DNA of 64,000 nt from Spirochaetia bacterium (GTDB lineage Bacteria; Spirochaetota; Spirochaetia; SZUA-6; Bin103). Numbering within the stretch: position 1 is the first letter of the stretch; each line of letters opens with the position of its first letter. A program made the position numbers and the translations under genes. The DNA is taken from positions 672,001 to 736,000 of the forward strand of contig OZ241863.1 of assembly GCA_965203055.1 (NCBI GenBank), given 5' to 3'. Of the stretch, positions 13,593 to 24,566 are shown in pieces. The notes beneath the pieces are model-generated. The model had not been told where the DNA came from, searched no databases, and worked only from the letters and a program-made list of their open reading frames with translations.

Positions 13593-15317
13593 TCAGCGGG
13601 CCGCGGCCAGGGCGGGGGCGGCAGCGGGCTGCCGCCGGGAAGAAGCCGCCAGGCTGCGGTTCAGGGCCGAGATCAGCGCCAGCGCGGACGCCTTGGCAAT
13701 GTTGGGGTTGGTCCCCGCCCCGAACCGCTGGGTGCCGTCGCCGCGGGCTATCTGGATGTAGGCGATGGCGGTGGAATCGGTGCCCTGGCCGAGGGCGTGC
13801 TCGGAGTAGTGGGTGAGCCGGAAGTCGTTCAGCCCCGCCTGCCCCAGGGCGTCCTTGAGCGCGTCGATCGGCCCGTTGCCGGTTCCGCGCAGCTCCCTCT
13901 CGGCGCCGTCCACGACGACGGTCAAGGTGCCGTGCATGCGTGAACTGTCCTCGGTATCGCTGGCGATGGCGTAGTCGAGGAAGCGCAGCGGGGCGTCGAC
14001 CTCCAGGTACTCACGCTGGAAGGCGCGCCAGATCTCATGCGCCTCCACTTCGCGGCCGCTGCGGTCGCTCAGCTCCTGCACCACCTGTCCGAACTCCGGC
14101 TGCATGGTCTTGGGTAGCTGGCAGCCGAACTCGCTCTCCATCACGTAGGCGACGCCGCCTTTGCCGGACTGGGAGTTGATGCGGATGATCGCCTGATAGG
14201 AGCGGCCGACGTCGGTGGGATCGATCGGCAGGTAGGGGACCTCCCACCGATCGCCGGGCGTTTCGCTTTGCGCGGTCATGCCCTTGTTGATCGCGTCCTG
14301 GTGCGAGCCGGAGAAGGCGGTGAACACCAGTTCGCCGGCGTAGGGATGGCGCGCGCCGACCGGCAGCTCGGTGCAGTAGTCGGAAACTTCGATCAGGCGG
14401 CTCAGGTCGTGCAAGTCGAGGCCGGGGTCCACGCCCTGGGTGTACAGGTTGAGGGCCACGGTGACGATGTCCACGTTGCCGGTGCGTTCGCCGTTGCCGA
14501 ACAGGGTGCCTTCCACCCGCTCGCCGCCGGCCAGCAGGCCCAACTCGGTGGCCGCCACCCCGGTGCCGCGGTCGTTGTGGGTGTGCAGGCTGAGGATGAT
14601 GCTGTCGCGGCGCTGCACGCGGCGCAGGAACCACTCGATCTGGTCGGCGTACACGTTGGGGGTGGCCAGCTCGACCGTTGCCGGCAGGTTGATGATCATG
14701 CGCCGGTCCGGGCTGGGATCCCAGGCCTCGATCACCGCGTCGCAAATTTCCACCGCGAAGTCCAGCTCGGTGCCGGTGAAGCTCTCCGGCGAGTATTCGT
14801 AGAGAATCTCGGTGGCGGTCTGCTCGGCCAGCTCCCGCACCAGCCGGGTGCCGTCCACCGCGATGCCGCGGATGGCGGCGCGGTCCATGCGAAACACGAC
14901 GCGGCGCTGCAGCTCGGAGGTGGAGTTGTAGAGATGGACGATGGCGCGCGGCGTGCCGGCGATCGCCTCGAACGTGCGCCGGATCAGGTGCTCGCGGGAC
15001 TGGGTGAGCACCTGCGGATATACGCCGGCGGGAATCAGGCCGCGCTCGATCAGGGTGCGCGTGAAGTCGAACTCCACGGCGGAGGCGGAGGGGAACCCCA
15101 CCTCGATCTCCTTGAAGCCGATGTCCGCCAGCAGTGAGAACATGCGCAGCTTCTGGTTCAGGTTCATGGGGTTGATGAGGGCCTGGTTGCCGTCGCGCAG
15201 ATCGACGCTGCACCACCGCGGCGCGCGCTGCAGCGTGCGGTTCGGCCACTGCCGGTCGGGCAGATCGATGGTCGGGAAGGGGCGGTACTTGGTGATGGTG
15301 CCTCGCTGCACGTTCAT
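13593..15317 (-). CDS. leuA: 2-isopropylmalate synthase (yeast/actinobacterial-type LeuA)
   Basis: ATG 15317 with GAGGAGG RBS; WCSVDLRDGNQAL, YSPESFTGTE, SLHTHNDRG, GNGERTGN, RINSQSGKGG, GNGPID. Confidence 0.95.
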   Translation of the reverse strand: MNVQRGTITKYRPFPTIDLPDRQWPNRTLQRAPRWCSVDLRDGNQALINPMNLNQKLRMFSLLADIGFKEIEVGFPSASAVEFDFTRTLIERGLIPAGVYPQVLTQSREHLIRRTFEAIAGTPRAIVHLYNSTSELQRRVVFRMDRAAIRGIAVDGTRLVRELAEQTATEILYEYSPESFTGTELDFAVEICDAVIEAWDPSPDRRMIINLPATVELATPNVYADQIEWFLRRVQRRDSIILSLHTHNDRGTGVAATELGLLAGGERVEGTLFGNGERTGNVDIVTVALNLYTQGVDPGLDLHDLSRLIEVSDYCTELPVGARHPYAGELVFTAFSGSHQDAINKGMTAQSETPGDRWEVPYLPIDPTDVGRSYQAIIRINSQSGKGGVAYVMESEFGCQLPKTMQPEFGQVVQELSDRSGREVEAHEIWRAFQREYLEVDAPLRFLDYAIASDTEDSSRMHGTLTVVVDGAERELRGTGNGPIDALKDALGQAGLNDFRLTHYSEHALGQGTDSTAIAYIQIARGDGTQRFGAGTNPNIAKASALALISALNRSLAASSRRQPAAAPALAAAR

Positions 15318-15338
15318 CCTCCTCGATGGCGCTGCCAT

Positions 15339-15390
15339 AAAAAAAGCCCAGGTCAGCAGTCGATCACCTGATCGACTGTGAGCCTGGGCT
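15339..15390 (-). terminator. Intrinsic terminator of the leuA attenuator
   Basis: Minus strand AGCCCAGG..CAGTCGATC-AGGT-GATCGACTG..CCTGGGC followed by a run of 7 T, about 20 nt upstream of the leuA start. Confidence 0.85.
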
Positions 15391-15411
15391 GCTGCCTTGC
15401 TGCGCCGTTCG

Positions 15412-15504
15412 CTACATGCGGTCTCCGGCGGAGCACGCGGCAACCCAGGCCGGTAGGCCCAACAGGGTGAGGAGCAGTTGCTGTAGTGACGGAAGCTGTC
15501 GCAT
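15412..15504 (-). CDS. Leucine-rich leader peptide of leuA (30 aa, MRQLPSLQQLLLTLLGLPAWVAACSAGDRM)
   Basis: 8 Leu in the first 17 codons, including two CTA, one CTT and one TTG; lies between a promoter and the terminator; contains the antiterminator arm. Confidence 0.8.
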   Translation of the reverse strand: MRQLPSLQQLLLTLLGLPAWVAACSAGDRM

Positions 15505-15526
15505 GTCCTGACCGAAGTCCGCACGT

Positions 15527-15556
15527 AAGCTACCCCGGACCGGCACCGCGTGGCAA
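15527..15556 (-). promoter_or_regulatory. Putative promoter of the leu leader/leuA
   Basis: TTGCCA, 18 bp, TAGCTT on the minus strand, 22 nt upstream of the leader ATG. Confidence 0.55.
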
Positions 15557-15792
15557 GTGCCTCCGAAGTGAAGCATACCGCCGAGGAGCAGCCGCCCGGC
15601 GCCGGCGCGGCTGCAGAGGGGAGGTGCCGCTGATTCGGAGACAGGCGCCGCGCGGGCCGGTTGGCGGCCAACGCTGCCGGCAGCGGGCCGTCTACCGCCG
15701 GCAACACCGGAAGGCCAGCTCCAGCACCTGTCAACCATGCGCCGGCGCGGTGCTATCGGCACTCAGCCACTCGGTGGGCAACCGGGACCACC

Positions 15793-16008
15793 TCAGTTCA
15801 CGGTGACGGCCAACCCGACCACGAGCACGGCCATGACACCGACACGGATTGCAGCGGCCCGTACTGCCAAGCCCTTGGTGATCAGCAGCTTCTCGTTGAA
15901 GGCGACCGACTCGGCAAGCCCGTCACCGATCCATTCCGTCAGCCCGGCCTCCTCGTACTCCGGCGAATGGAGGTGGATGGGCTCCCTAGTGTTCGGCGTC
16001 ATCATCAC
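15793..16008 (-). pseudogene. Small ORF, probably a C-terminal fragment of a membrane protein
   Basis: 71 aa ending in one hydrophobic helix (N..L..K...AAAIRVGVMAVLVVGLAV); no clear RBS; island edge. Confidence 0.3.
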
Positions 16009-16046
16009 GGCCGTCGTGACTACGGCGTCGTCGATCGGCCGGGTCG

Positions 16047-16075
16047 TTGACGTATGTGTTCCGAAGGGGTACTAT
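16047..16075 (+). promoter_or_regulatory. Near-consensus sigma70 promoter for the protease operon
   Basis: TTGACG (16047-16052), 17 bp, TACTAT (16070-16075). Confidence 0.6.
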
Positions 16076-16245
16076 ATGAGCAAAGGGCGGACACGTTGCA
16101 AGCGCTGGATGAGCTGACGGGCAGGACGTCGGCGCCGAGAGGGAGTTGATGCCCCTTGGCGAGATGTTGCGTCGAGAAGCCCGGCGGCACCTGAGATCAA
16201 ATAATTGTGCCATCCTTTGAATTGTTTGGGGAAAGGAGTAACCGA

Positions 16246-17160
16246 ATGGCGAAACCGCAGTTGTCAGAAGAAAGAACAATCGCTGCTGTCGAGAAGGAGA
16301 TTGACGATGCGTGCAACGAACTCGCCAAGATTCGGAACTCGAAATGCTTCCCGCTGCTGCTCAGTGACACCAGTATACGAAACACCACTGTCGATAGGGT
16401 CTACGATCGGTTGCGTGACGGGAAGTACGACGGTGGCTCCTTGGATGTCGTCATAGATTCCAGCGGAGGCGATATTGATGCGGCGTATAATCTTTCCCTA
16501 CTTTTTCGTCGGTATGGGAGCGGCAGTCTGACCTTTTTCATCCCGAGATGGGCAAAGAGTGCGGCGACACTTTTGATCTGTGCCGGTGATGAGATCCACA
16601 TGACTCCCGTCGCAGAACTGGGACCATTGGATCCTCAGATCACTGCAACTAACCCGTTCGAGCGTCGTGTAGAATCGTTTTCTCCTCTCCACATAGAATC
16701 GACTCTTCAGCTTATCCGGGACGAGTTTGACAATGGTAGCTCGAGACTGGCCGAAGGACTCATAAATAGGCTGCAGTTTCCTCTTACGCTCGGAAGCATC
16801 AAGAAATCTCTTGATGTAGGACGCGAATATGTCGAAAGGCTTCTCCTATCCAGAATGTTGAAAGAGAACAAGGAAGCTGTCGAGAAGATCGGCAAGCGGC
16901 TGACGACTGGATATGCGGATCATAGTTGGTGCATTACCGTTGATGAGGCACAGGAGATGGGACTGAAGGTGAGCGAAATCAAGGATGAATCCTTGGATAT
17001 AGTTTGGAAGATACATAAACTAAATAGCGAGAAGTCAGATCTCATTAGTCAAGAAAGAGAAGATAAGTTAAAGGCAAAATTGAAGGATTTGCCTCCCGAA
17101 CTGTTGAATGCATTATTGTCCTCTGGGATTGATGGGCAGAAAGATAAAGATCGGAGTTAG
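16246..17160 (+). CDS. ClpP/crotonase-fold serine protease (SDH_sah / DUF114-like)
   Basis: AAGGAG RBS then ATG 16246; DSSGGDIDAA, IPRWAKSAATLL (catalytic Ser), MTPVAELGPLDPQ, DHSWCITVDEAQEMGL (His); low GC. Confidence 0.85.
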   Translation: MAKPQLSEERTIAAVEKEIDDACNELAKIRNSKCFPLLLSDTSIRNTTVDRVYDRLRDGKYDGGSLDVVIDSSGGDIDAAYNLSLLFRRYGSGSLTFFIPRWAKSAATLLICAGDEIHMTPVAELGPLDPQITATNPFERRVESFSPLHIESTLQLIRDEFDNGSSRLAEGLINRLQFPLTLGSIKKSLDVGREYVERLLLSRMLKENKEAVEKIGKRLTTGYADHSWCITVDEAQEMGLKVSEIKDESLDIVWKIHKLNSEKSDLISQEREDKLKAKLKDLPPELLNALLSSGIDGQKDKDRS

Positions 17161-17169
17161 GAGGAGAAT

Positions 17170-17412
17170 ATGGTCGACTATTCAGCGATACCGACACGGC
17201 TTGCGGCCGCTTTGCTGCTTGCCAGAGGTGAAATATCTTTCGGTGAGATCAGGGCTCTTCCTTTGGTCGAAGATGAGAAATTCGCACTTGCCATAGCGGA
17301 CATACTGGCGCAAAGCTTCAGGGTTGAGCGGTCCGAACGGCGGGTGGATCAGTCGGCCTCGCAGTTTGAAGATGTGATTCGACTTTTAGCGTCGCCCGCT
17401 GCAGGAAGATAG
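17170..17412 (+). CDS. Small hypothetical protein, predicted winged-helix-like
   Basis: Strong GGAGGAG RBS 9 nt after the protease stop; helix-strand-helix-helix-hairpin pattern; same low GC as the protease. Confidence 0.7.
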   Translation: MVDYSAIPTRLAAALLLARGEISFGEIRALPLVEDEKFALAIADILAQSFRVERSERRVDQSASQFEDVIRLLASPAAGR

Positions 17413-17689
17413 CGCTTAGCTTTAGCTTCTGTTCTCGAAATGCACCGGTGTGCGGATAGGAGGTCGGCTCAGCGTGGACAGGCCGTAAACAGAGCGCTTC
17501 CGGGTTTCGTGCGTGGGTAGGGCGTCTTGACGGCAGCGCCTGCGTCAGCAAGTCTACGCTGGCGCCATTGCATGACAGGAACGGGACGGCAGGATGTTGT
17601 CTCATGCCTACGGCGGGATCGGGAAGCGGCAGGTGGTCAGCCCAACGCCGGACGATCGCTTTCCCACGCGCGTGGTTCTTGTCCACTAG

Positions 17690-18455
17690 CGGCTCATCGA
17701 AGCCTTGCAGCAGGTCCAGGCCGGCGGCGTGCAGCGCATTCGCCGCGCGCTATGAACAGCACGGCCAACGCTTCAGCATCGCCACCATCGACCAGGACGC
17801 TACCATCGTCGAGTCCCACAAGAAGGCCACCTTCCCTCATTACCAGGGTGGCCGCGGCTATCAGCCGATGCTCGCCCTGTGGGCGGAAGCCGACCTGATC
17901 GTCGCCGACCAGTTCCGCGACGGCAACGTGCCTGCCCACCAGGAACCGCTGACCTGTTGCCAACTGGCGTTCGCCGCACTGCCCGACACCATCACCACGC
18001 GCTACTTCCGCGGTGACAGCGGTTGCTATGAGAGCAACCTGTTGGACTGGCTCAGCGACCCGCAACGCCAGCAGGAGCCCGGCGGCGGCATCGGCTTCGC
18101 CATCAGCGCCAGGATGAGTCCCGAACTGCGCCGCGCCGCCACCCTCCCGGAAGTGAAGCCGACGGCACCATGCGGCAGTGGGCGGAGAGCTGTTCTACGT
18201 CCCTAGCAAGAAGACCGAGCACAAGGACAGCCAGCCGCTGCGCTACCTCGGACTGCGGCTGCGCAAGGCGCAGGGCGAGTTGTTCGCCGACGGCAGCGAC
18301 CGCCACTACCACGCGGTGGTGACCAACCTGCCGTCGGACGCGCCGCGGCTATTGCAGTGGCACCGGGAGAAGGCCGGCACCATCGAGCACGCCCATGACG
18401 AACTGAAGAATGGCTTGGCGGCCGGCCACATGCCGAGTCAACGGTTCGCGGCGTG
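17690..18455 (+). mobile_element. Degenerate IS1380-family transposase remnant
   Basis: TIDQDATIVES, YQPM, FRDGNVPA, RGDSGCY, VVTN, REKAGTIEHAHDELKN motifs split by frameshifts (~17740, ~18140-18190); both termini missing. Confidence 0.8.
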
Positions 18456-18582
18456 CACGCCAAGCTCAGCGCCGCCTCGGTGGGATATGACCGGCGGCAC
18501 CGTTGACACGCGCCGCTATTTGCGTCAAGTATGCGCCCAACCACCGCTACCCGCGGTAGTCGCGCCTCCAGGAGAGAGACAC

Positions 18583-19758
18583 ATGGACCAGAATGGCCTG
18601 CCGGACTGGTATGACGACTATGCCGAAGACCAGGACGAACTGCAGATCGAAGAATACGACATCACCGCTTCTCCGAACGACTTCAACGTGATGACCCTCC
18701 ACAGCTTCGTGGATACCGGATCGGTACGAATTCCGGGATTCCAGCGTAACTTCGTGTGGGATATCGGACGGTCCTCGAGGTTGATCGAGTCACTTATCCT
18801 TGGCCTACCGGTCCCGCAACTCTTTCTCTACGAACAGGAGCGAAACAAGTTTCTCGTGATCGACGGCCAGCAACGTCTGATGTCGATCTACTATTTCATC
18901 AAGAAACGCTTTCCTCGAAAAGAGCGGCGGGCCGATATTCGCCGCATTTTCGATCAGGAGGGAACTATCCCTGATAAAGTACTATATGACGACAAGTATT
19001 TCCAGACATTCAACCTGAGACTGGCGAGCTCGCTTCCGAATCGAGAGAATAAATTCAGAGGCTTGAACTATGCTACGCTCGGCGACTACAAAACTCAACT
19101 CGACCTTCGTCCGATACGAAATATTGTGGTAAAGCAGAACGCTCCATCGGGAGACGATTCGTCGATGTTCGAGGTGTTCAATCGACTCAACACGGGTGGC
19201 GTAAACCTGAGACCACAGGAGATCCGAACGAGTATGTATCACTCCGACTTCTATCTTATGCTCTATCGGATCAATACGGAGAATAAGAAATGGAGAACGC
19301 TGCTGAAATCAGACGCTCCCGACTTACACATGAAGGATATAGAGATTCTACTCCGAGGTTTTGCCATGCTCTTGGATGGTCACAAATACGCTCCATCAAT
19401 GGTCAGATTCCTCAATCTATTCTCCAAGAAATGCATGAATCACAGCGCCGAAATAAATGAATATCTCGAGAGATTGTTTGGGTCCTTTCTCCATGCCTGC
19501 TCAGCATTGCCCGACAACGTTTTTTTCAACGAGGGTAACAACCGATTCAACATAGCACTTTACGAGGCAGTATTTGCCGTATCAGGAAAGGGAGCCATAG
19601 CGGAGAAGAGACCGATAGATGGTTTGCTCGATACCCGCAAGATTCGTGAACTGGAACAGGACAAGGAATTTTCCCAAGCATCGTCGGTGAGTACCACTAG
19701 CACGGCTAACGTGAAAAAACGTCTGGATAGGGCGGCTGCCATCGTCGGATCCCTGTAG
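18583..19758 (+). CDS. DUF262 (GmrSD N-terminal / ParB-like) domain protein
   Basis: GGAGAG RBS and ATG 18583; IPGFQRNFVW, LIESLILGLPVP, VIDGQQRL, FNRLNTGGVNL; low GC. Confidence 0.9.
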   Translation: MDQNGLPDWYDDYAEDQDELQIEEYDITASPNDFNVMTLHSFVDTGSVRIPGFQRNFVWDIGRSSRLIESLILGLPVPQLFLYEQERNKFLVIDGQQRLMSIYYFIKKRFPRKERRADIRRIFDQEGTIPDKVLYDDKYFQTFNLRLASSLPNRENKFRGLNYATLGDYKTQLDLRPIRNIVVKQNAPSGDDSSMFEVFNRLNTGGVNLRPQEIRTSMYHSDFYLMLYRINTENKKWRTLLKSDAPDLHMKDIEILLRGFAMLLDGHKYAPSMVRFLNLFSKKCMNHSAEINEYLERLFGSFLHACSALPDNVFFNEGNNRFNIALYEAVFAVSGKGAIAEKRPIDGLLDTRKIRELEQDKEFSQASSVSTTSTANVKKRLDRAAAIVGSL

Positions 19759-19768
19759 CGGTCGAGTA

Positions 19769-20338
19769 GTGGCTACTAAGCCGGTCGATGCACTGCATAA
19801 GAATTTTGCTGATCTTCTTGCATTTCTGGACCAGGCCGACCAGATTTCATTCCGAATTACGGCGGATGACAACTTCAGGAAGGTGTTACTGTTGGCTGCC
19901 GCGAGTTACTTCGAAAGGCAACTGACGGAGGTAGTGGTATCTTTCGTGAGGGCCGTGACGGCACCGGATCACGTCGTTACGTGGTTGATCAAGAAACGGG
20001 TAGTGGGACGACAGTACCATACCTGGTTCGATTGGGAGGCTCGTAACGCGAACAAATTCTTCAGTATGTTCGGCAATTCGTTCAAGAACCACATGAGTAA
20101 GCTGGTCAACAGGGACGACACACTGTCTTTCGCAATTCAGGCGTTCATGGAGATTGGGCGAGAGCGAAACCTGATGGTGCATCAGGATTTTGGAAGCTAC
20201 ACCCTCCAAAAGACATTGGAAGAGATATACGAAATGTATCGTTCTGCGGCCAAGTTTGTCGAATGGTTTTCTCAGGAACTCAGGAGATACTCGGTGACTG
20301 GAACGGACACGTCGCAGGGAGCGCAGCTCCGTACCTGA
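19769..20338 (+). CDS. HEPN-domain protein (RiboL-PSP/MAE_28990-like)
   Basis: LLLAAASYFE helix and RNLMVH (Rx4H) HEPN motif; directly downstream of DUF262. Confidence 0.8.
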   Translation: MATKPVDALHKNFADLLAFLDQADQISFRITADDNFRKVLLLAAASYFERQLTEVVVSFVRAVTAPDHVVTWLIKKRVVGRQYHTWFDWEARNANKFFSMFGNSFKNHMSKLVNRDDTLSFAIQAFMEIGRERNLMVHQDFGSYTLQKTLEEIYEMYRSAAKFVEWFSQELRRYSVTGTDTSQGAQLRT

Positions 20339-20391: not shown

Positions 20392-23349
20392 TCATACGCG
20401 GAACACCTTCATCACTTCGTCGCCGAGGTGGTTGATCACCTTGACGGCGATGCGGCCTGACTCCGGGCGGTCGAAGGGGCGGGAGGTGTCGCTGTGGAGG
20501 GTCTCCCAGGCGTCGCGGTCGATCTCGGCCTTGAGGGTGGTCTTCAGCGCCTTGTAGGGGTCGCTGGCGCCCAGGAAGTAGGCGTGGCGGACGAAGAAGC
20601 TCTCCTCGTCGTAGTCGGTGTCGATGAACCAGCAGGCGATGCCGTCAGGGCCGTCGCTGCGGACTTCGCCGGTGTTGGGATGGAACACGTCCACGCCGTT
20701 GACCTTGACCCGGAGGCGGTCGGCGGCGCCGCTGTCGTCGGCGACCGGCAGGAGGTCGATGTCGGGCTCGCCGAAGATCACGAACAGGTTGCCGGCGCCG
20801 GTGTTCTTGAGGTCGCCGGCCATGTGCAGGTCGGCGTTCATGCGCGCCTTGAGGATCGGGACGCGGCCGAGGCGGCCGAGTTCGCCGGCGTGGGCGTCGT
20901 AGCTGAAGGCGCAGGCGATCAGCACGTCGTAGTCGGCGTCGGCGGCTTCGCGGGCGGCGGCGGCGAGATCGGGGCGGGCGACGGTGCCGAACTCGGGGCC
21001 GATGAAGACGCCGGCGCGCCGTTCGGCGCCGGTGTCGGAGGCGCCCTCGAGGTAGCGCCCTTCGGCGCAGATCAGCTTGCCCGGCCAGGGGGTGAGGGCG
21101 GTGAAGGAGATGCGGTCTTCCTTGTGCGCCTGCTGGACGCCGGCGGTGCGCAGGTTTTCGAGGATCATGGCGGCGAAGTCGTGCTGGCCGCCGTCGTCGT
21201 AGCCGGTCTTGCGCTCGGCGAGGTGGTCGATCAGGCCGTCGTTCTCGTCGACGCCCAAGGTGCGGTGCGGCGCCAGGCTTTCCACCGTAAACGGGCCGGC
21301 TACGCGCACGATGCCCCGATCTTCGTAGGGCTTGTCGTAGAGGTACTCGTAGTCCGCCTTGGCGGCGATGGAGGCGTCGATCTCCCGCTGGCGGGCGATG
21401 CGCGCTTGCCACCAGCGGCGGTGCAGGTCGGCGGGGCCGGCGTCCCACGGGTCGAGCGGCCGCTCCGGGACCGTCGCCGGCGAGTAGGCGCGGCCCAGCG
21501 CGCGGTTCAACGCCCGCAGCGCGGTCGCCTTCGCGGCGTCGGTCGGCGCGTCCTGAGTCCGCTGCCACGCCGCGGCGGCCGCGGCCGGCCACGGATCGCC
21601 CGGTTCGCGCGGAATCTCCCACTCCTCCCAGGTGCGGGCGAGGGCGGCGTTGAGTGCCGCGCGCAACGGCTCCAGGGTCTCCTGCCAGCGCTCATGGATC
21701 ACGTCGATCTCGGTGTTGTTGGCGATCGACTTGAGGGTGACGTGCGGCACGCGCTCATACACGAACCCCTGCCGAATGTCGCCGCTGGTCGCGCTCTCGG
21801 ACGGAACCGTCTGCGACAGTTCGGCTTCCTTGCGCCGTCCGTCCACGCTGTCCGCCAGCAGGTAGTACGGGTAGCGCGCGCCCATCACGCGGGAGCGTGC
21901 CAAGGCCAGGGCGACGCGCGAGGTGTCGATGGTGATCCAGCGCCGCCCCCACTGCTCGGCCACGTAGGCGGTGGTACCGGAACCGCAGGTAGGGTCAAGC
22001 ACCAAGTCGCCGGGATCGGTGGTCATGAGGATACATCGTTCAACCACCGACGCGCTTGTCTGTACCACGTAGATCAAACCCGTACCAATCTGCAGGGACT
22101 CCCATCGGTCGGTAATCGGTAGCACACTAAAGTCGCCAATATACCGCTTGTAGCGGATCGTCTTGGAGCCGGCCGCTATCCTTCCGCACTTTGCCAGATT
22201 CTCAAGCCCTTTTACGGTGGTCTTCCAGTGACTACCTCCGGAAGGGTTATACATCCTTCCTTGAAAAGAAAATGGCTGTGCAATCGATGATTGACCGGAA
22301 CTGATGAGACTCGTATGTCGAAATATCCGACCGTCAGGTAAGTCTACAAGCCGCTCGATCTCCGCCTTCGAAAGCCGTCTTTCCGTACCATCTTCCAACT
22401 CGATCTGATCATATCTGTCTGACGATACATGACCGGTGATTCGTGAGTTGTATAGCTGCCGGTATTTCGAATATTCCTTTGGATTATTTGATTTCGCGTA
22501 CCAGAGAATGAAATCTACTGTGTTCGCAAGAAGAGTTCCTGATTGACTTCCTGTTTTCTGAAATTGGATAATCGATACAAAGCTGTCTTCGCCGAATATC
22601 TCATCCATCAAGTCTCGCACGCGATGGACGTTCTCGTCGCCGATCTGTACGAAGATGCTGCCGCTCTCGGTGAGCAGGTCGCGCGCCACGGTCAGGCGGT
22701 CGCGCAGGTAGGTCAGGTACGAATGAATCCCGTCGCGCCACGTGTCGCGGAACGCCTTGACCTGTTCGGGCTCGCGGGTGATGTGTTCGGCCTTGCCGTC
22801 CTTCACGTCGCGGCTGGTGGTGGACCACTGGAAGTTGGAGTTGAACTTGATGCCGTAGGGCGGGTCGAGGTAGATGCACTGCACCGCGCCGCGCAGCCCC
22901 TCGCGCTCGGCCAGCGACGCCATCACCTGCAGGCTGTCGCCCAGGATCATGCGATTCGACCAGTTGGCGTCGTGGCGGTAGAACTCGGTGCGGGCGTCGC
23001 CGTCGGGCAGGCCGTTGAAGTCGGCGAACAGGTCGATCTGGTCGTCCGCGGCGCGTTCGTTCGCCTTGCTGCGCCGCAGCAGGTCGTCGATCAGGGCCTT
23101 GGGGTGGACCTTCTCCTGGATGAACAGCGGGGGCGCCTGGACCACGAGGTCGGACCAGTCCTGCTCGTCCTTGCCGCGCCACACGAGCTGCGGATCGAGA
23201 TCCTGGTTGCGCCGCCGATACGCCACCCGGACCGGGTGCTGATCGGCCTTCTCCATCAGCGACCGGTACTCCGCGGTGGGAATGTTCTTGCGCGACGCAT
23301 CGTCGTGCGTAATGGTCTCGACGGCCTTGGCCGCCCTGCGCTTCGCCAT
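20392..23349 (-). CDS. Site-specific adenine DNA methyltransferase (type III Mod-like, beta class)
   Basis: MILGDSL, YLDPPYG catalytic motif before DPTCGSGTT SAM-binding motif; C-terminal IAVKVINHLGDEVMKV. Confidence 0.92.
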   Translation of the reverse strand: MAKRRAAKAVETITHDDASRKNIPTAEYRSLMEKADQHPVRVAYRRRNQDLDPQLVWRGKDEQDWSDLVVQAPPLFIQEKVHPKALIDDLLRRSKANERAADDQIDLFADFNGLPDGDARTEFYRHDANWSNRMILGDSLQVMASLAEREGLRGAVQCIYLDPPYGIKFNSNFQWSTTSRDVKDGKAEHITREPEQVKAFRDTWRDGIHSYLTYLRDRLTVARDLLTESGSIFVQIGDENVHRVRDLMDEIFGEDSFVSIIQFQKTGSQSGTLLANTVDFILWYAKSNNPKEYSKYRQLYNSRITGHVSSDRYDQIELEDGTERRLSKAEIERLVDLPDGRIFRHTSLISSGQSSIAQPFSFQGRMYNPSGGSHWKTTVKGLENLAKCGRIAAGSKTIRYKRYIGDFSVLPITDRWESLQIGTGLIYVVQTSASVVERCILMTTDPGDLVLDPTCGSGTTAYVAEQWGRRWITIDTSRVALALARSRVMGARYPYYLLADSVDGRRKEAELSQTVPSESATSGDIRQGFVYERVPHVTLKSIANNTEIDVIHERWQETLEPLRAALNAALARTWEEWEIPREPGDPWPAAAAAAWQRTQDAPTDAAKATALRALNRALGRAYSPATVPERPLDPWDAGPADLHRRWWQARIARQREIDASIAAKADYEYLYDKPYEDRGIVRVAGPFTVESLAPHRTLGVDENDGLIDHLAERKTGYDDGGQHDFAAMILENLRTAGVQQAHKEDRISFTALTPWPGKLICAEGRYLEGASDTGAERRAGVFIGPEFGTVARPDLAAAAREAADADYDVLIACAFSYDAHAGELGRLGRVPILKARMNADLHMAGDLKNTGAGNLFVIFGEPDIDLLPVADDSGAADRLRVKVNGVDVFHPNTGEVRSDGPDGIACWFIDTDYDEESFFVRHAYFLGASDPYKALKTTLKAEIDRDAWETLHSDTSRPFDRPESGRIAVKVINHLGDEVMKVFRV

Positions 23350-23502: not shown

Positions 23503-23576
23503 CCGGGTGGGCGGCGGGGCGCCGCGCGCCCATGCAAAAGCGCCGCCGACGCCGCGCCGTTGTAGGGATCAGAGAA

Positions 23577-24566
23577 ATGGCACCACCCCTGCATCAGCCC
23601 CACGATCACCTGTTCCGCCTGGTGTTCGCCGACCCCGAGGAGACCGCCGCCTTCCTCCGCGCCCGGCTGCCGGACTCGTACCAGGGCGGCATCCTCTGGT
23701 CCTCCCTGCGCCGCGCCGCAGGCTCCTTCGTCGACCAGGAGCTGCGCGGCTCCGTCACCGACCTGCTGTTCGAAGTGCGCAGCGCCGCCGCGGCGCCGCG
23801 GCAGTGGCTCTACCTGCTGTTCGAACATCAGTCCCAGCCCGACCGCTGGATCACGCTACGCCTGCTGCGCTACTGCTGCCGCATCTGGGAGAACGACCGC
23901 CGCGACCACCCCGACGAGCAGTACCTGCGCCCGGTGCTGCCGCTGGTGTTCTACCAGGGCGAGCACCACTGGCACTACGCCATCGAACTGGCGGAGTCGT
24001 TCCCGCCGGCGCTGCGCGGCCAGCCGTGGGTACCCCGCTTCTGCCCGCTGCTGCTGGACCAGACCCGGATGGCGCCGGCGGCGGTGGCCGGGGAACTGCA
24101 CGGGCGGTTGCTGCAACTGGCGATGATGCACACCTTCGAGCAGGAGCTGGGGGAGGCGCGGAAGCGAATCGCGCCGCTGATAGGGGAGTTGAAGTGGAAG
24201 CCGACGCACGGCGGGGTGGACTACTACCAAGCGTTCCTGAGGTATATTGTGAAGACCGGGCCGGCGGACACGCTGCAAGCGCTGGGTGAGCTGCTGCGGC
24301 GCCTGGCGCCGGAACTGAGAGGTGATCTGATGACCTGTGGCGAGATACTGCGCCGGGAAGGCGAATTGAAGGGCCGCCAGGAAGGCCGGCGGGAGGGCCG
24401 CCGGGAAGGCGAACTGAAAGGCCGGCTGGAGACCATCGACGGGTTCCTGCAGGCCGGGATCAAGTGGCCGGTGATCCACTCCGCCACCGGCATCGACGAG
24501 CCCACCTACCGCACCCTCAAACGCGGCGCCGCCAACGGCACGGAGCAGGCCGCGCCCCGCCAATAA
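23577..24566 (+). CDS. Rpn family recombination-promoting nuclease (PD-(D/E)XK, transposase_31)
   Basis: PHDHLFR, SFVDQELR, TDLLF, YLLFEHQS, VLPLVFYQG, C-terminal EG repeats. Confidence 0.92.
   Translation: MAPPLHQPHDHLFRLVFADPEETAAFLRARLPDSYQGGILWSSLRRAAGSFVDQELRGSVTDLLFEVRSAAAAPRQWLYLLFEHQSQPDRWITLRLLRYCCRIWENDRRDHPDEQYLRPVLPLVFYQGEHHWHYAIELAESFPPALRGQPWVPRFCPLLLDQTRMAPAAVAGELHGRLLQLAMMHTFEQELGEARKRIAPLIGELKWKPTHGGVDYYQAFLRYIVKTGPADTLQALGELLRRLAPELRGDLMTCGEILRREGELKGRQEGRREGRREGELKGRLETIDGFLQAGIKWPVIHSATGIDEPTYRTLKRGAANGTEQAAPRQ
24330..24566 (+). CDS. Putative intragenic small Rpn C-terminal protein (RpnS-like antitoxin), 78 aa
   Basis: In-frame ATG 24330 preceded by GAGGTGAT (24319-24326), at the start of the variable MT..E.LR.EG tail. 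Confidence 0.55.
   Translation: MTCGEILRREGELKGRQEGRREGRREGELKGRLETIDGFLQAGIKWPVIHSATGIDEPTYRTLKRGAANGTEQAAPRQ
24351..24422 (+). repeat. Six 12-bp degenerate tandem repeats in the Rpn tail (RREG/ELKG/RQEG)
   Basis: cgccgggaaggc gaattgaagggc cgccaggaaggc cggcgggagggc cgccgggaaggc gaactgaaaggc. Confidence 0.85.

Follow-up and report, generated by a model that had tools for sequence, protein, structure and literature searches.

A ClpP-fold serine protease and a small winged-helix-fold protein form a horizontally moving gene pair that may be a biological-conflict module

Why does the GC-rich genome of a Spirochaetia bacterium carry a 1.2-kb cassette of low G+C content in which the gene of a serine protease is followed at once by that of an 80-amino acid (aa) protein, and what could the two proteins do together? 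The pair and its upstream signals lie at positions 16047 to 17412 of the stretch of 64,000 nucleotides (nt) analyzed here, contig OZ241863.1, positions 672,001 to 736,000 (hereafter the window). An earlier note, made from the sequence alone, had proposed an undescribed protease-based defence or toxin-antitoxin module. Here, we report that the pair is a two-gene operon moving horizontally as a unit, and we favor, tentatively and at slightly less than an even chance, the reading that it is an uncatalogued biological-conflict module, i.e., an anti-phage system or a toxin-antitoxin-like addiction cassette. The features of the element are as follows.

16047..16075, + strand: promoter-like site TTGACG-17-TACTAT, 9 of 12 consensus matches, possibly used, outside the low-GC cassette
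16076..16245, + strand: putative 5' leader; the low-GC tract begins at about 16215
16233-16238, + strand: ribosome-binding site AAGGAG, 7 nt before the protease ATG
16246..17160, + strand: gene of the ClpP-fold serine protease, 304 aa, a distinct subfamily of Pfam SDH_protease
17160..17166, + strand: ribosome-binding site GGAGGAG of the second gene, overlapping the protease stop codon TAG at 17158-17160
17170..17412, + strand: gene of the acidic partner with a winged-helix fold, 80 aa, a family without an existing model
17397..17414, + strand: weak terminator-like hairpin over the partner stop codon, at chance level (3 sites compared with 2.5 +/- 1.7 expected)

One genome per species was scanned, which gave 80 loci, and 55 of these are treated as related loci on the basis of a protease identity of at least 36% (L054 alone is below 45%). 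The co-location of the two genes, whose absence among homologues the earlier note would have taken as a refutation, is borne out: the hidden Markov model (HMM) of the partner matches a same-strand open reading frame (ORF) directly downstream of the protease in 46 of the 80 loci, all 46 being among the 55 related ones, and with a divergent copy recognized by eye (L048) the partner is present in 47 of the 52 related loci that can be assessed. Three of the nine misses (L017, L031, and L052) are loci in which the contig ends at the protease. In 30 related loci, the partner start follows the protease stop after a median of about 15 nt, the start codons being our own choice. Pairwise identities of protease and partner are correlated over 28 pairs (Mantel r = 0.61, reached by none of 2000 permutations), and the partner evolves about twice as fast, its mean pairwise identity being 29% compared with 52% for the protease. 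Two adjacent, co-oriented, tightly spaced, and co-inherited genes are also the layout of type II toxin-antitoxin systems. No third recurring gene was found among 391 ORFs within 4 kb of the pair.

The two genes also occur fused. A word-index search gave no longer (fused) partner relatives, whereas the exhaustive profile search did yield fusions. Ten of the listed partner relatives exceed 160 aa in length. Of these, two (P0264 and P0266, 48% and 51% identical to the window protease over nearly its whole length) are full-length fusions with the partner at the protease C-terminus, two are partial ORFs with a protease-partner fusion, one (P0183) has the partner joined to a VapB-like ribbon-helix-helix (RHH) segment, and five carry low-complexity extensions that resemble read-through. 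A sister protease clade at 33-35% identity (L058, L059, L062, and L068, from Minisyncoccia, Bacteroidales, a gammaproteobacterium, and Bacteroidia) has a downstream gene of its own, 69-81 aa long, mutually similar among its members and unrelated in sequence to the window partner; because this sister clade has a different conserved downstream gene, a variable small partner seems to be a general feature.

In metagenome-assembled genomes (MAGs) of Arenicellales (L007, L008, and L051), the partner runs into or precedes a VapB-like RHH segment, which is followed by a PIN (VapC-like) gene. The arrangement is either a recruited antitoxin domain or the result of decay or mis-assembly. An apparent triple fusion in L007 (P0096) has two in-frame stops in its protease part and is possibly decayed or mis-assembled.

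That the pair moves as a unit is seen in its base composition and in its distribution. In the window, the low-GC tract extends only from about 16215 to about 17422; the G+C content of the pair is 49% (49-55% for the stretch) compared with about 70% for the window, and the G+C content at third codon positions (GC3) is 0.52 in both genes compared with 0.85-0.89 in the adjacent host-like genes, indicating that the DNA of the pair is foreign and little ameliorated. Across loci, the flanking genes vary from one locus to the next, the G+C content of the pair is below that of the flanks in 45 of 46, and its GC3 is lower than that of long ORFs in the flanks in 43 of 43, the difference being at least 0.1 in 38; the GC3 of the pair still tracks that of the host (r = 0.77). 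In a quick maximum-likelihood tree of 56 proteases, from which the frameshifted Heimdallarchaeota and Woesearchaeota copies were left out, the partner-bearing subfamily is recovered as a single supported clade (97) of 46 rows. It covers 14 named phyla, Methanosarcina and Hadarchaeota among them, and contains supported subclades of mixed phyla: one joins Chloroflexota with Thermodesulfobacteriota, and another joins the window with Binatia, Gammaproteobacteria, and Spirochaetia. Some genomes have two copies of the pair, and metagenomes contain copies that are 99% identical.

The earlier note described the pair as a low-GC unit with its own promoter. The low G+C content stands; the promoter is doubtful, as TTGACG-17-TACTAT is located in GC-rich, host-like DNA upstream of the low-GC tract, and one site of that quality was found in the 2.8-kb stretch where shuffles give 0.9 +/- 1.0. 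The 165-nt leader can therefore be called putative only, since the promoter is at chance level and outside the tract. The strong ribosome-binding site claimed ahead of the 80-aa ORF is present, partly within the protease stop codon. Searching Rfam on 15000-19000 at E<=1 gave a single chance miRNA match outside the unit and none in the leader, and a search for direct and inverted repeats in 15900-17750 gave just short, chance-like matches, with no terminal repeats or target duplication seen.

What kind of protein is the protease? It belongs to Pfam PF01972 (SDH_protease), which scores 51.4 bits (gathering cut-off 31.3), the best stretch covering only residues 65-134, in two stretches, and which is present in all 120 of the protease homologues listed. 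The NCBIfam equivalog NF047768 (Clp_like_SDH) scores 66.8 bits, below its cut-off of 250, and, judged by these scores, the protease is a subfamily separate from that canonical equivalog. Its best PHROG match is phrog_11747 (function unknown, 2e-31). Homologues number 616 at E<=1e-3 among 5021 scored candidates. In the SDH_protease family, the catalytic residues are Ser, Asp, and His in that order, and the order in the window protease fits: Ser105, Asp129, and His226, which belong to the motifs AKSAAT, GPLDPQ, and DHSWCI that the earlier note had read as intact putative catalytic sites, are invariant across 35 aligned homologues; of the 80 loci, the 78 in which all three positions are covered retain them without exception, down to 27% identity. 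Besides being conserved, the protease is probably active.

In an AlphaFold2 model of the protease based on the 35-sequence alignment (pLDDT 80.9), a ClpP-like core is elaborated by a helical insert and, within residues 247-295, by two long C-terminal helices, in agreement with the helical tail predicted earlier. Foldseek returned 100 PDB matches at E<=1e-3, and among the matches listed the best are 1510-N, ClpP, and SppA (E of about 1e-5 to 1e-4); a PDB sequence search with the protease profile gave nothing significant. By reading of the sequence, no predictor being used, the protease has no signal peptide or membrane segment and is taken as cytosolic. Within the otherwise variable, charged tail, an LKDLPPELL-type motif is conserved at residues of about 278-290 (window positions of about 17077-17115), and K280 is nearly invariant. 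The partner domain in the fusions begins about 20-50 residues after this motif, which could serve for docking or self-processing.

Searches of Pfam, NCBIfam, PHROGs, and PADLOC gave no significant match for the partner. A word-index search found 50 homologues, and the exhaustive profile search found 241 representatives at 50% identity. Its AlphaFold2 model (pLDDT 82.8) consists of a helix at 6-19, a strand at 21-23, helices at 24-28 and 36-49, and strands at 52-58 and 66-72; this H-S-H-H-S-S order is a winged-helix topology and reproduces the helix-strand-helix-helix-β-hairpin pattern read earlier from the ORF. Foldseek matches are weak and generic (E of about 1e-2), namely ArsR/MarR/TFE-type domains and phage helix-turn-helix proteins; against viral models only generic winged-helix matches at E of about 1e-2 were obtained, and an ESM Atlas search gave scores of at most 0.76 and no lead. 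The net charge of the partner core is negative in 46 of 58 sequences, the median isoelectric point (pI) is 5.55, and helix 3, the "recognition" helix, is dominated by Ala, Leu, Ile, and Asp. Because of this acidity and this helix 3 composition, we consider the partner a protein-binding module rather than a repressor; DNA binding is, by its composition, unlikely. The co-fold of protease and partner with alignments scored 0.04 against a mark of 0.32 and carries no weight either way.

Does the company that the pair keeps point to a role? Neighbor ORFs were our own calls (longest non-overlapping, at least 70 aa), and L036, L039, and L051 were dropped from the neighbor set as near-duplicates. The near set takes, on either side of the pair, the closest three ORFs that reach 80 aa (43 loci, 238 ORFs), and the distal control takes the two outermost ORFs per side, none nearer to the pair than 6.5 kb (138 ORFs, 38 loci). 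PADLOC matches were counted at E<=1e-10, and promiscuous models were set aside (mad2, mad3, the mad6/PD-T4-6 kinases, SduA on a response regulator, and ThsC/HIT). After these exclusions, 20 near ORFs in 12 loci have a PADLOC match. Thus, 12 of 43 near loci compare with 3 of 38 distal loci (p = 0.024, Fisher), and 20 of 238 near ORFs with 3 of 138 distal ORFs (p = 0.014, Fisher); the locus-level test is fairer because the ORFs of one system are not independent. Without exclusions, the counts are 18 of 43 and 6 of 38 for loci (p = 0.014) and 27 of 238 and 7 of 138 for ORFs (p = 0.042). The 12 loci and their PADLOC matches are the following.

L002: type II restriction-modification
L003: HmaA and RmrA
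L006: PDC-S01
L011: HmaA
L016: PDC-M45B
L021: type IIG and a partial PsyrT match
L023: HmaC
L024: reverse transcriptase and HD protein
L029: type III restriction-modification and HEC-07
L037: type III restriction-modification
L042: methyltransferase
L043: HmaC

The pair is within or adjoins Hma/DUF499 systems in four loci (L003, L011, L023, and L043), and type II, IIG, or III restriction-modification genes adjoin it in five (L002, L021, L029, L037, and L042). In L003 (6430-18328), the pair has HmaA on one side and HmaB on the other and is accompanied by an IrrE-HTH gene and a PDC-S20-like ATPase, and in L023 (10001-19661) it directly precedes HmaC, a Uma2-like gene and HmaA being further on. 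By all-against-all BLAST, the commonest neighbor family is an N6/N4 DNA methyltransferase (six loci). Further loci have PIN or HigB toxins, transposases, or integrases near the pair, and Pfam also finds restriction-modification, helicase, toxin-antitoxin, reverse-transcriptase, transposase, and integrase genes. The window fits the defence-neighbor pattern of the other loci: its neighbors were correctly named earlier as a GmrSD_N/DUF262 protein with a RiboL-PSP HEPN protein, an N6/N4 methyltransferase, and an Rpn/Transposase_31 protein.

In the conflict module that we favor, the protease would be the effector and the small partner would contact it directly, either inhibiting it or conferring its specificity. 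Phage infection or another trigger would alter this contact, and the activated protease would then cleave phage or host proteins and end phage production; alternatively, it would kill cells that have lost the cassette. A narrower version, which we hold to be somewhat unlikely, is a self-contained anti-phage system crossing the bacterial-archaeal boundary, in which a ClpP-fold effector, kin to the prohead proteases, is silenced by the partner and freed by a phage protein. Here, the phage protein would displace or destroy the partner, the protease would cut phage assembly proteins or essential host proteins, and the SDH proteinase that Escherichia coli prophages carry as a moron would be a partnerless relative with the same function.

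The proposal of a defence or toxin-antitoxin module is thus partly supported, by the co-location, by the neighborhood, and by the fact that neither protein matches any of the 5027 models of PADLOC-DB v2.0.0 (0 families at E<=0.01), in line with the earlier statement that the pair is not a named system. Several observations weigh against it. The neighborhood is divided: defence genes are enriched over the distal control, but roughly half of the 43 loci have only housekeeping or unannotated neighbors in Pfam (GyrA, Dtd, HolA, aconitase, POR, and others), and the enrichment itself is modest and comes from our own ORF calls with models excluded post hoc. An intact protease with all catalytic residues stands without the partner in L035, L038, L044, L050, and L054, and the partner is kept beside a broken protease in eight loci, in many of which the breaks may be long-read frameshift errors. 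By these solo states, neither gene looks strictly lethal in the absence of the other, so that a simple toxin-antitoxin reading is weakened, and the solo states of both genes leave room for a regulatory or housekeeping role. The fusions come from metagenomic ORF calls, in which stop codons may have been lost. Moreover, 50,697 phage and 72,556 plasmid records yielded no close relative (at least 30% identity), the relatives there reaching at most 38% identity over partial matches and at most 29% where the match covers at least half of the query; these collections are dominated by cultured hosts, and our loci are nearly all from MAGs.

One alternative, to which we give a small chance, is a protease-repressor switch of the ImmA/ImmR or IrrE/DdrO kind, in which the protease cleaves a winged-helix transcription factor on a signal and other genes are turned on. 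Such a switch would suit the winged-helix fold of the partner, with its best Foldseek matches among ArsR/MarR/TFE-type regulators, and the arrangement of a protease gene beside that of a small regulator. It would also agree with the Arenicellales loci, where the partner is joined to, or succeeded by, a VapB-like RHH segment with a PIN gene downstream of it. Those Foldseek matches, however, are at E-values of only about 1e-2, and the partner is acidic with an Ala/Leu/Ile/Asp-rich "recognition" helix. Since conservation does not extend to the flanking genes, the pair carries no regulated target along with it, and no common upstream operator was seen when 38 upstream regions were compared by eye, a weak test in which the only similarity was between closely related Caldilineaceae loci.

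An ordinary regulated-proteolysis or quality-control protease with its adaptor or substrate, prone to transfer and with no role in conflict, as in 1510-N/stomatin or the ClpP-adaptor pairs, is also distinctly unlikely in our estimate. The closest solved folds (1510-N, ClpP, and SppA), the fact that 1510-N is likewise encoded beside its partner, the housekeeping flanks in about half of the loci, and the existence of both solo proteases and solo partners speak in its favor. It sits poorly with a patchy spread across 14 phyla in mixed-phylum clades, with a foreign GC3 in every one of the 43 loci, with pairs inside Hma and restriction-modification loci, with the fast evolution of the partner (29% compared with 52% mean identity), and with two copies in some genomes.

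We likewise rate as improbable a pure addiction cassette, i.e., a protease toxin and a small-protein antitoxin that stabilize mobile DNA with no anti-phage role. It would account for a compact, tightly spaced, AT-rich, and mobile two-gene operon with other toxin-antitoxin genes and transposases nearby, and also for the fused forms, as known toxin-antitoxin pairs can be fused too. The five loci that have a catalytically intact protease and no partner tell mildly against it, the partner gene is downstream and does not encode an obvious DNA-binding autoregulator, and no close copies are found on the sequenced plasmids. Finally, a prophage head-module remnant, with a ClpP-like prohead maturation protease and a small scaffold or decoration gene, is suggested by a weak NCBIfam Clp_rel_HeadMat match (32.4 bits, cut-off 120) and by PHROG 53 and 94 at E of about 1e-5, but it is extremely improbable and was rejected on context, as the 238 neighbor ORFs of 43 loci contain no Pfam portal, terminase, or capsid match, phrog_11747 matches better, and SDH_protease outscores every head-protease model.

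The DNA downstream of the pair in the window has features of its own. IS1380-family transposase fragments in two frames occupy 17568-18450 (the ORF at 17568-18206 and about the first 90 residues of the ORF at 18178-19758), separating the protease pair from the foreign cassette that follows, and a decayed IS1380 element may have helped to assemble the island. That second cassette is again a pair of low-GC3 genes, at about 18640-19758 (0.59) and 19769-20338 (0.63), encoding a DUF262/GmrSD_N protein (PADLOC NsnA 2e-54, PD-T4-2_A 1e-35) and a RiboL-PSP HEPN protein with no PADLOC match; it is probably a Menshen/PD-T4-2-like defence pair. At 20392-23349 on the - strand is a gene of a 985-aa type III-like N6/N4 DNA methyltransferase (PADLOC MTase_III, 1369 bits), with no Res-like gene seen beside it. 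GC3 in its codons of about 200-400 is 0.50-0.63 and in the rest of the gene 0.77-0.96, and the low-GC3 stretch looks like a swapped target-recognition region. An Rpn/YhgA-like (Transposase_31) gene at 23532-24566 has a host-like GC3 of 0.88.

Why should such a small cassette matter? Protease-triggered immunity is a growing theme in bacteria, and we know of no catalogued defence system with a ClpP-fold protease. If the anti-phage reading is true, the pair would be the first defence family built on the ClpP-type protease fold. More generally, a conflict role would give the SDH_protease family a function, would define a new small-protein family, and would mean that modules common in MAG lineages of the sponge, sediment, and groundwater types are overlooked by defence catalogues drawn from cultured bacteria. 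If there is no conflict role, the pair is still a widespread selfish or regulatory cassette that is worth naming. It is a cheap and well-defined candidate because it is tiny, strongly conserved, common to many uncultured phyla and to archaea, and found repeatedly inside restriction-like systems.

How does the pair compare with systems already known? In the literature, no description of the pair and no biological role for PF01972 were found, mentions of DUF114 being prefix matches or a bare list entry. The ClpP-like mention in PMC12419801 was considered and set aside, since it is about a secreted PDZ-fused protease. The Hma/DUF499 BREX-related systems have the pair inside or beside them in the four loci named above, and Hma genes are absent from the surroundings of most copies. 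Such a protease is not mentioned as a component in the Hma passages of PMC8565338, nor in the sections consulted, section 26 included, of a preprint on BREX-related systems (bioRxiv 10.1101/2025.10.09.681413). With SppA and the phage prohead maturation proteases (ClpP/S49-like), the window protease shares the fold class; it differs in having no membrane anchor and no phage structural genes nearby, and its scores are far below the cut-offs.

The best structural match is 1510-N of Pyrococcus horikoshii (NfeD/STOPP; 6m4b and 3viv, E of about 1e-5, TM 0.55-0.61 on the target), with an identity of only 14-15%. 1510-N is a ClpP-fold protease encoded beside a specific partner, stomatin, and uses a Ser-Lys dyad; titles of its PDB entries name S97A and K138A mutants. 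1510-N is membrane-bound with its stomatin partner, whereas the window partner has a winged-helix fold and no Pfam match, and NfeD1b_N scores 21.1 bits on the window protease (cut-off 40), which places it outside the NfeD/STOPP-stomatin group.

In its proposed logic, the pair resembles Lit, IetAS, CalpL-CalpT-CalpS, gasdermin with its protease, and ImmA/ImmR, in which a protease is silent until a trigger and a small regulator or substrate is involved. The proteases of those systems have metallo, subtilisin, Lon, caspase, or trypsin-like folds, and the likeness is one of logic, the pair having no PADLOC sequence match to them.

Distant relatives of the protease are also found on plasmids and in prophages. 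On a 4.1-kb ColE1-type Klebsiella plasmid, one of them is the chief cargo, and another, on a Chlorohelix plasmid, is followed by a 74-aa ORF. The SDH proteinase of E. coli (WP_044064371) has the fold and the ordered Ser, Asp, and His set in common with the window protease at about 26% identity; unlike the window pair, its gene has no annotated small partner downstream. In lambdoid prophages (L084, 6001-6996, on the E. coli EC11 chromosome; L082), it stands alone and oppositely oriented, with the Q antiterminator on one side and the holin on the other, and the Q-holin interval is a classic moron site. This accessory gene occurs in 47 of 5426 complete genomes, and its product is a handy laboratory model for the family.

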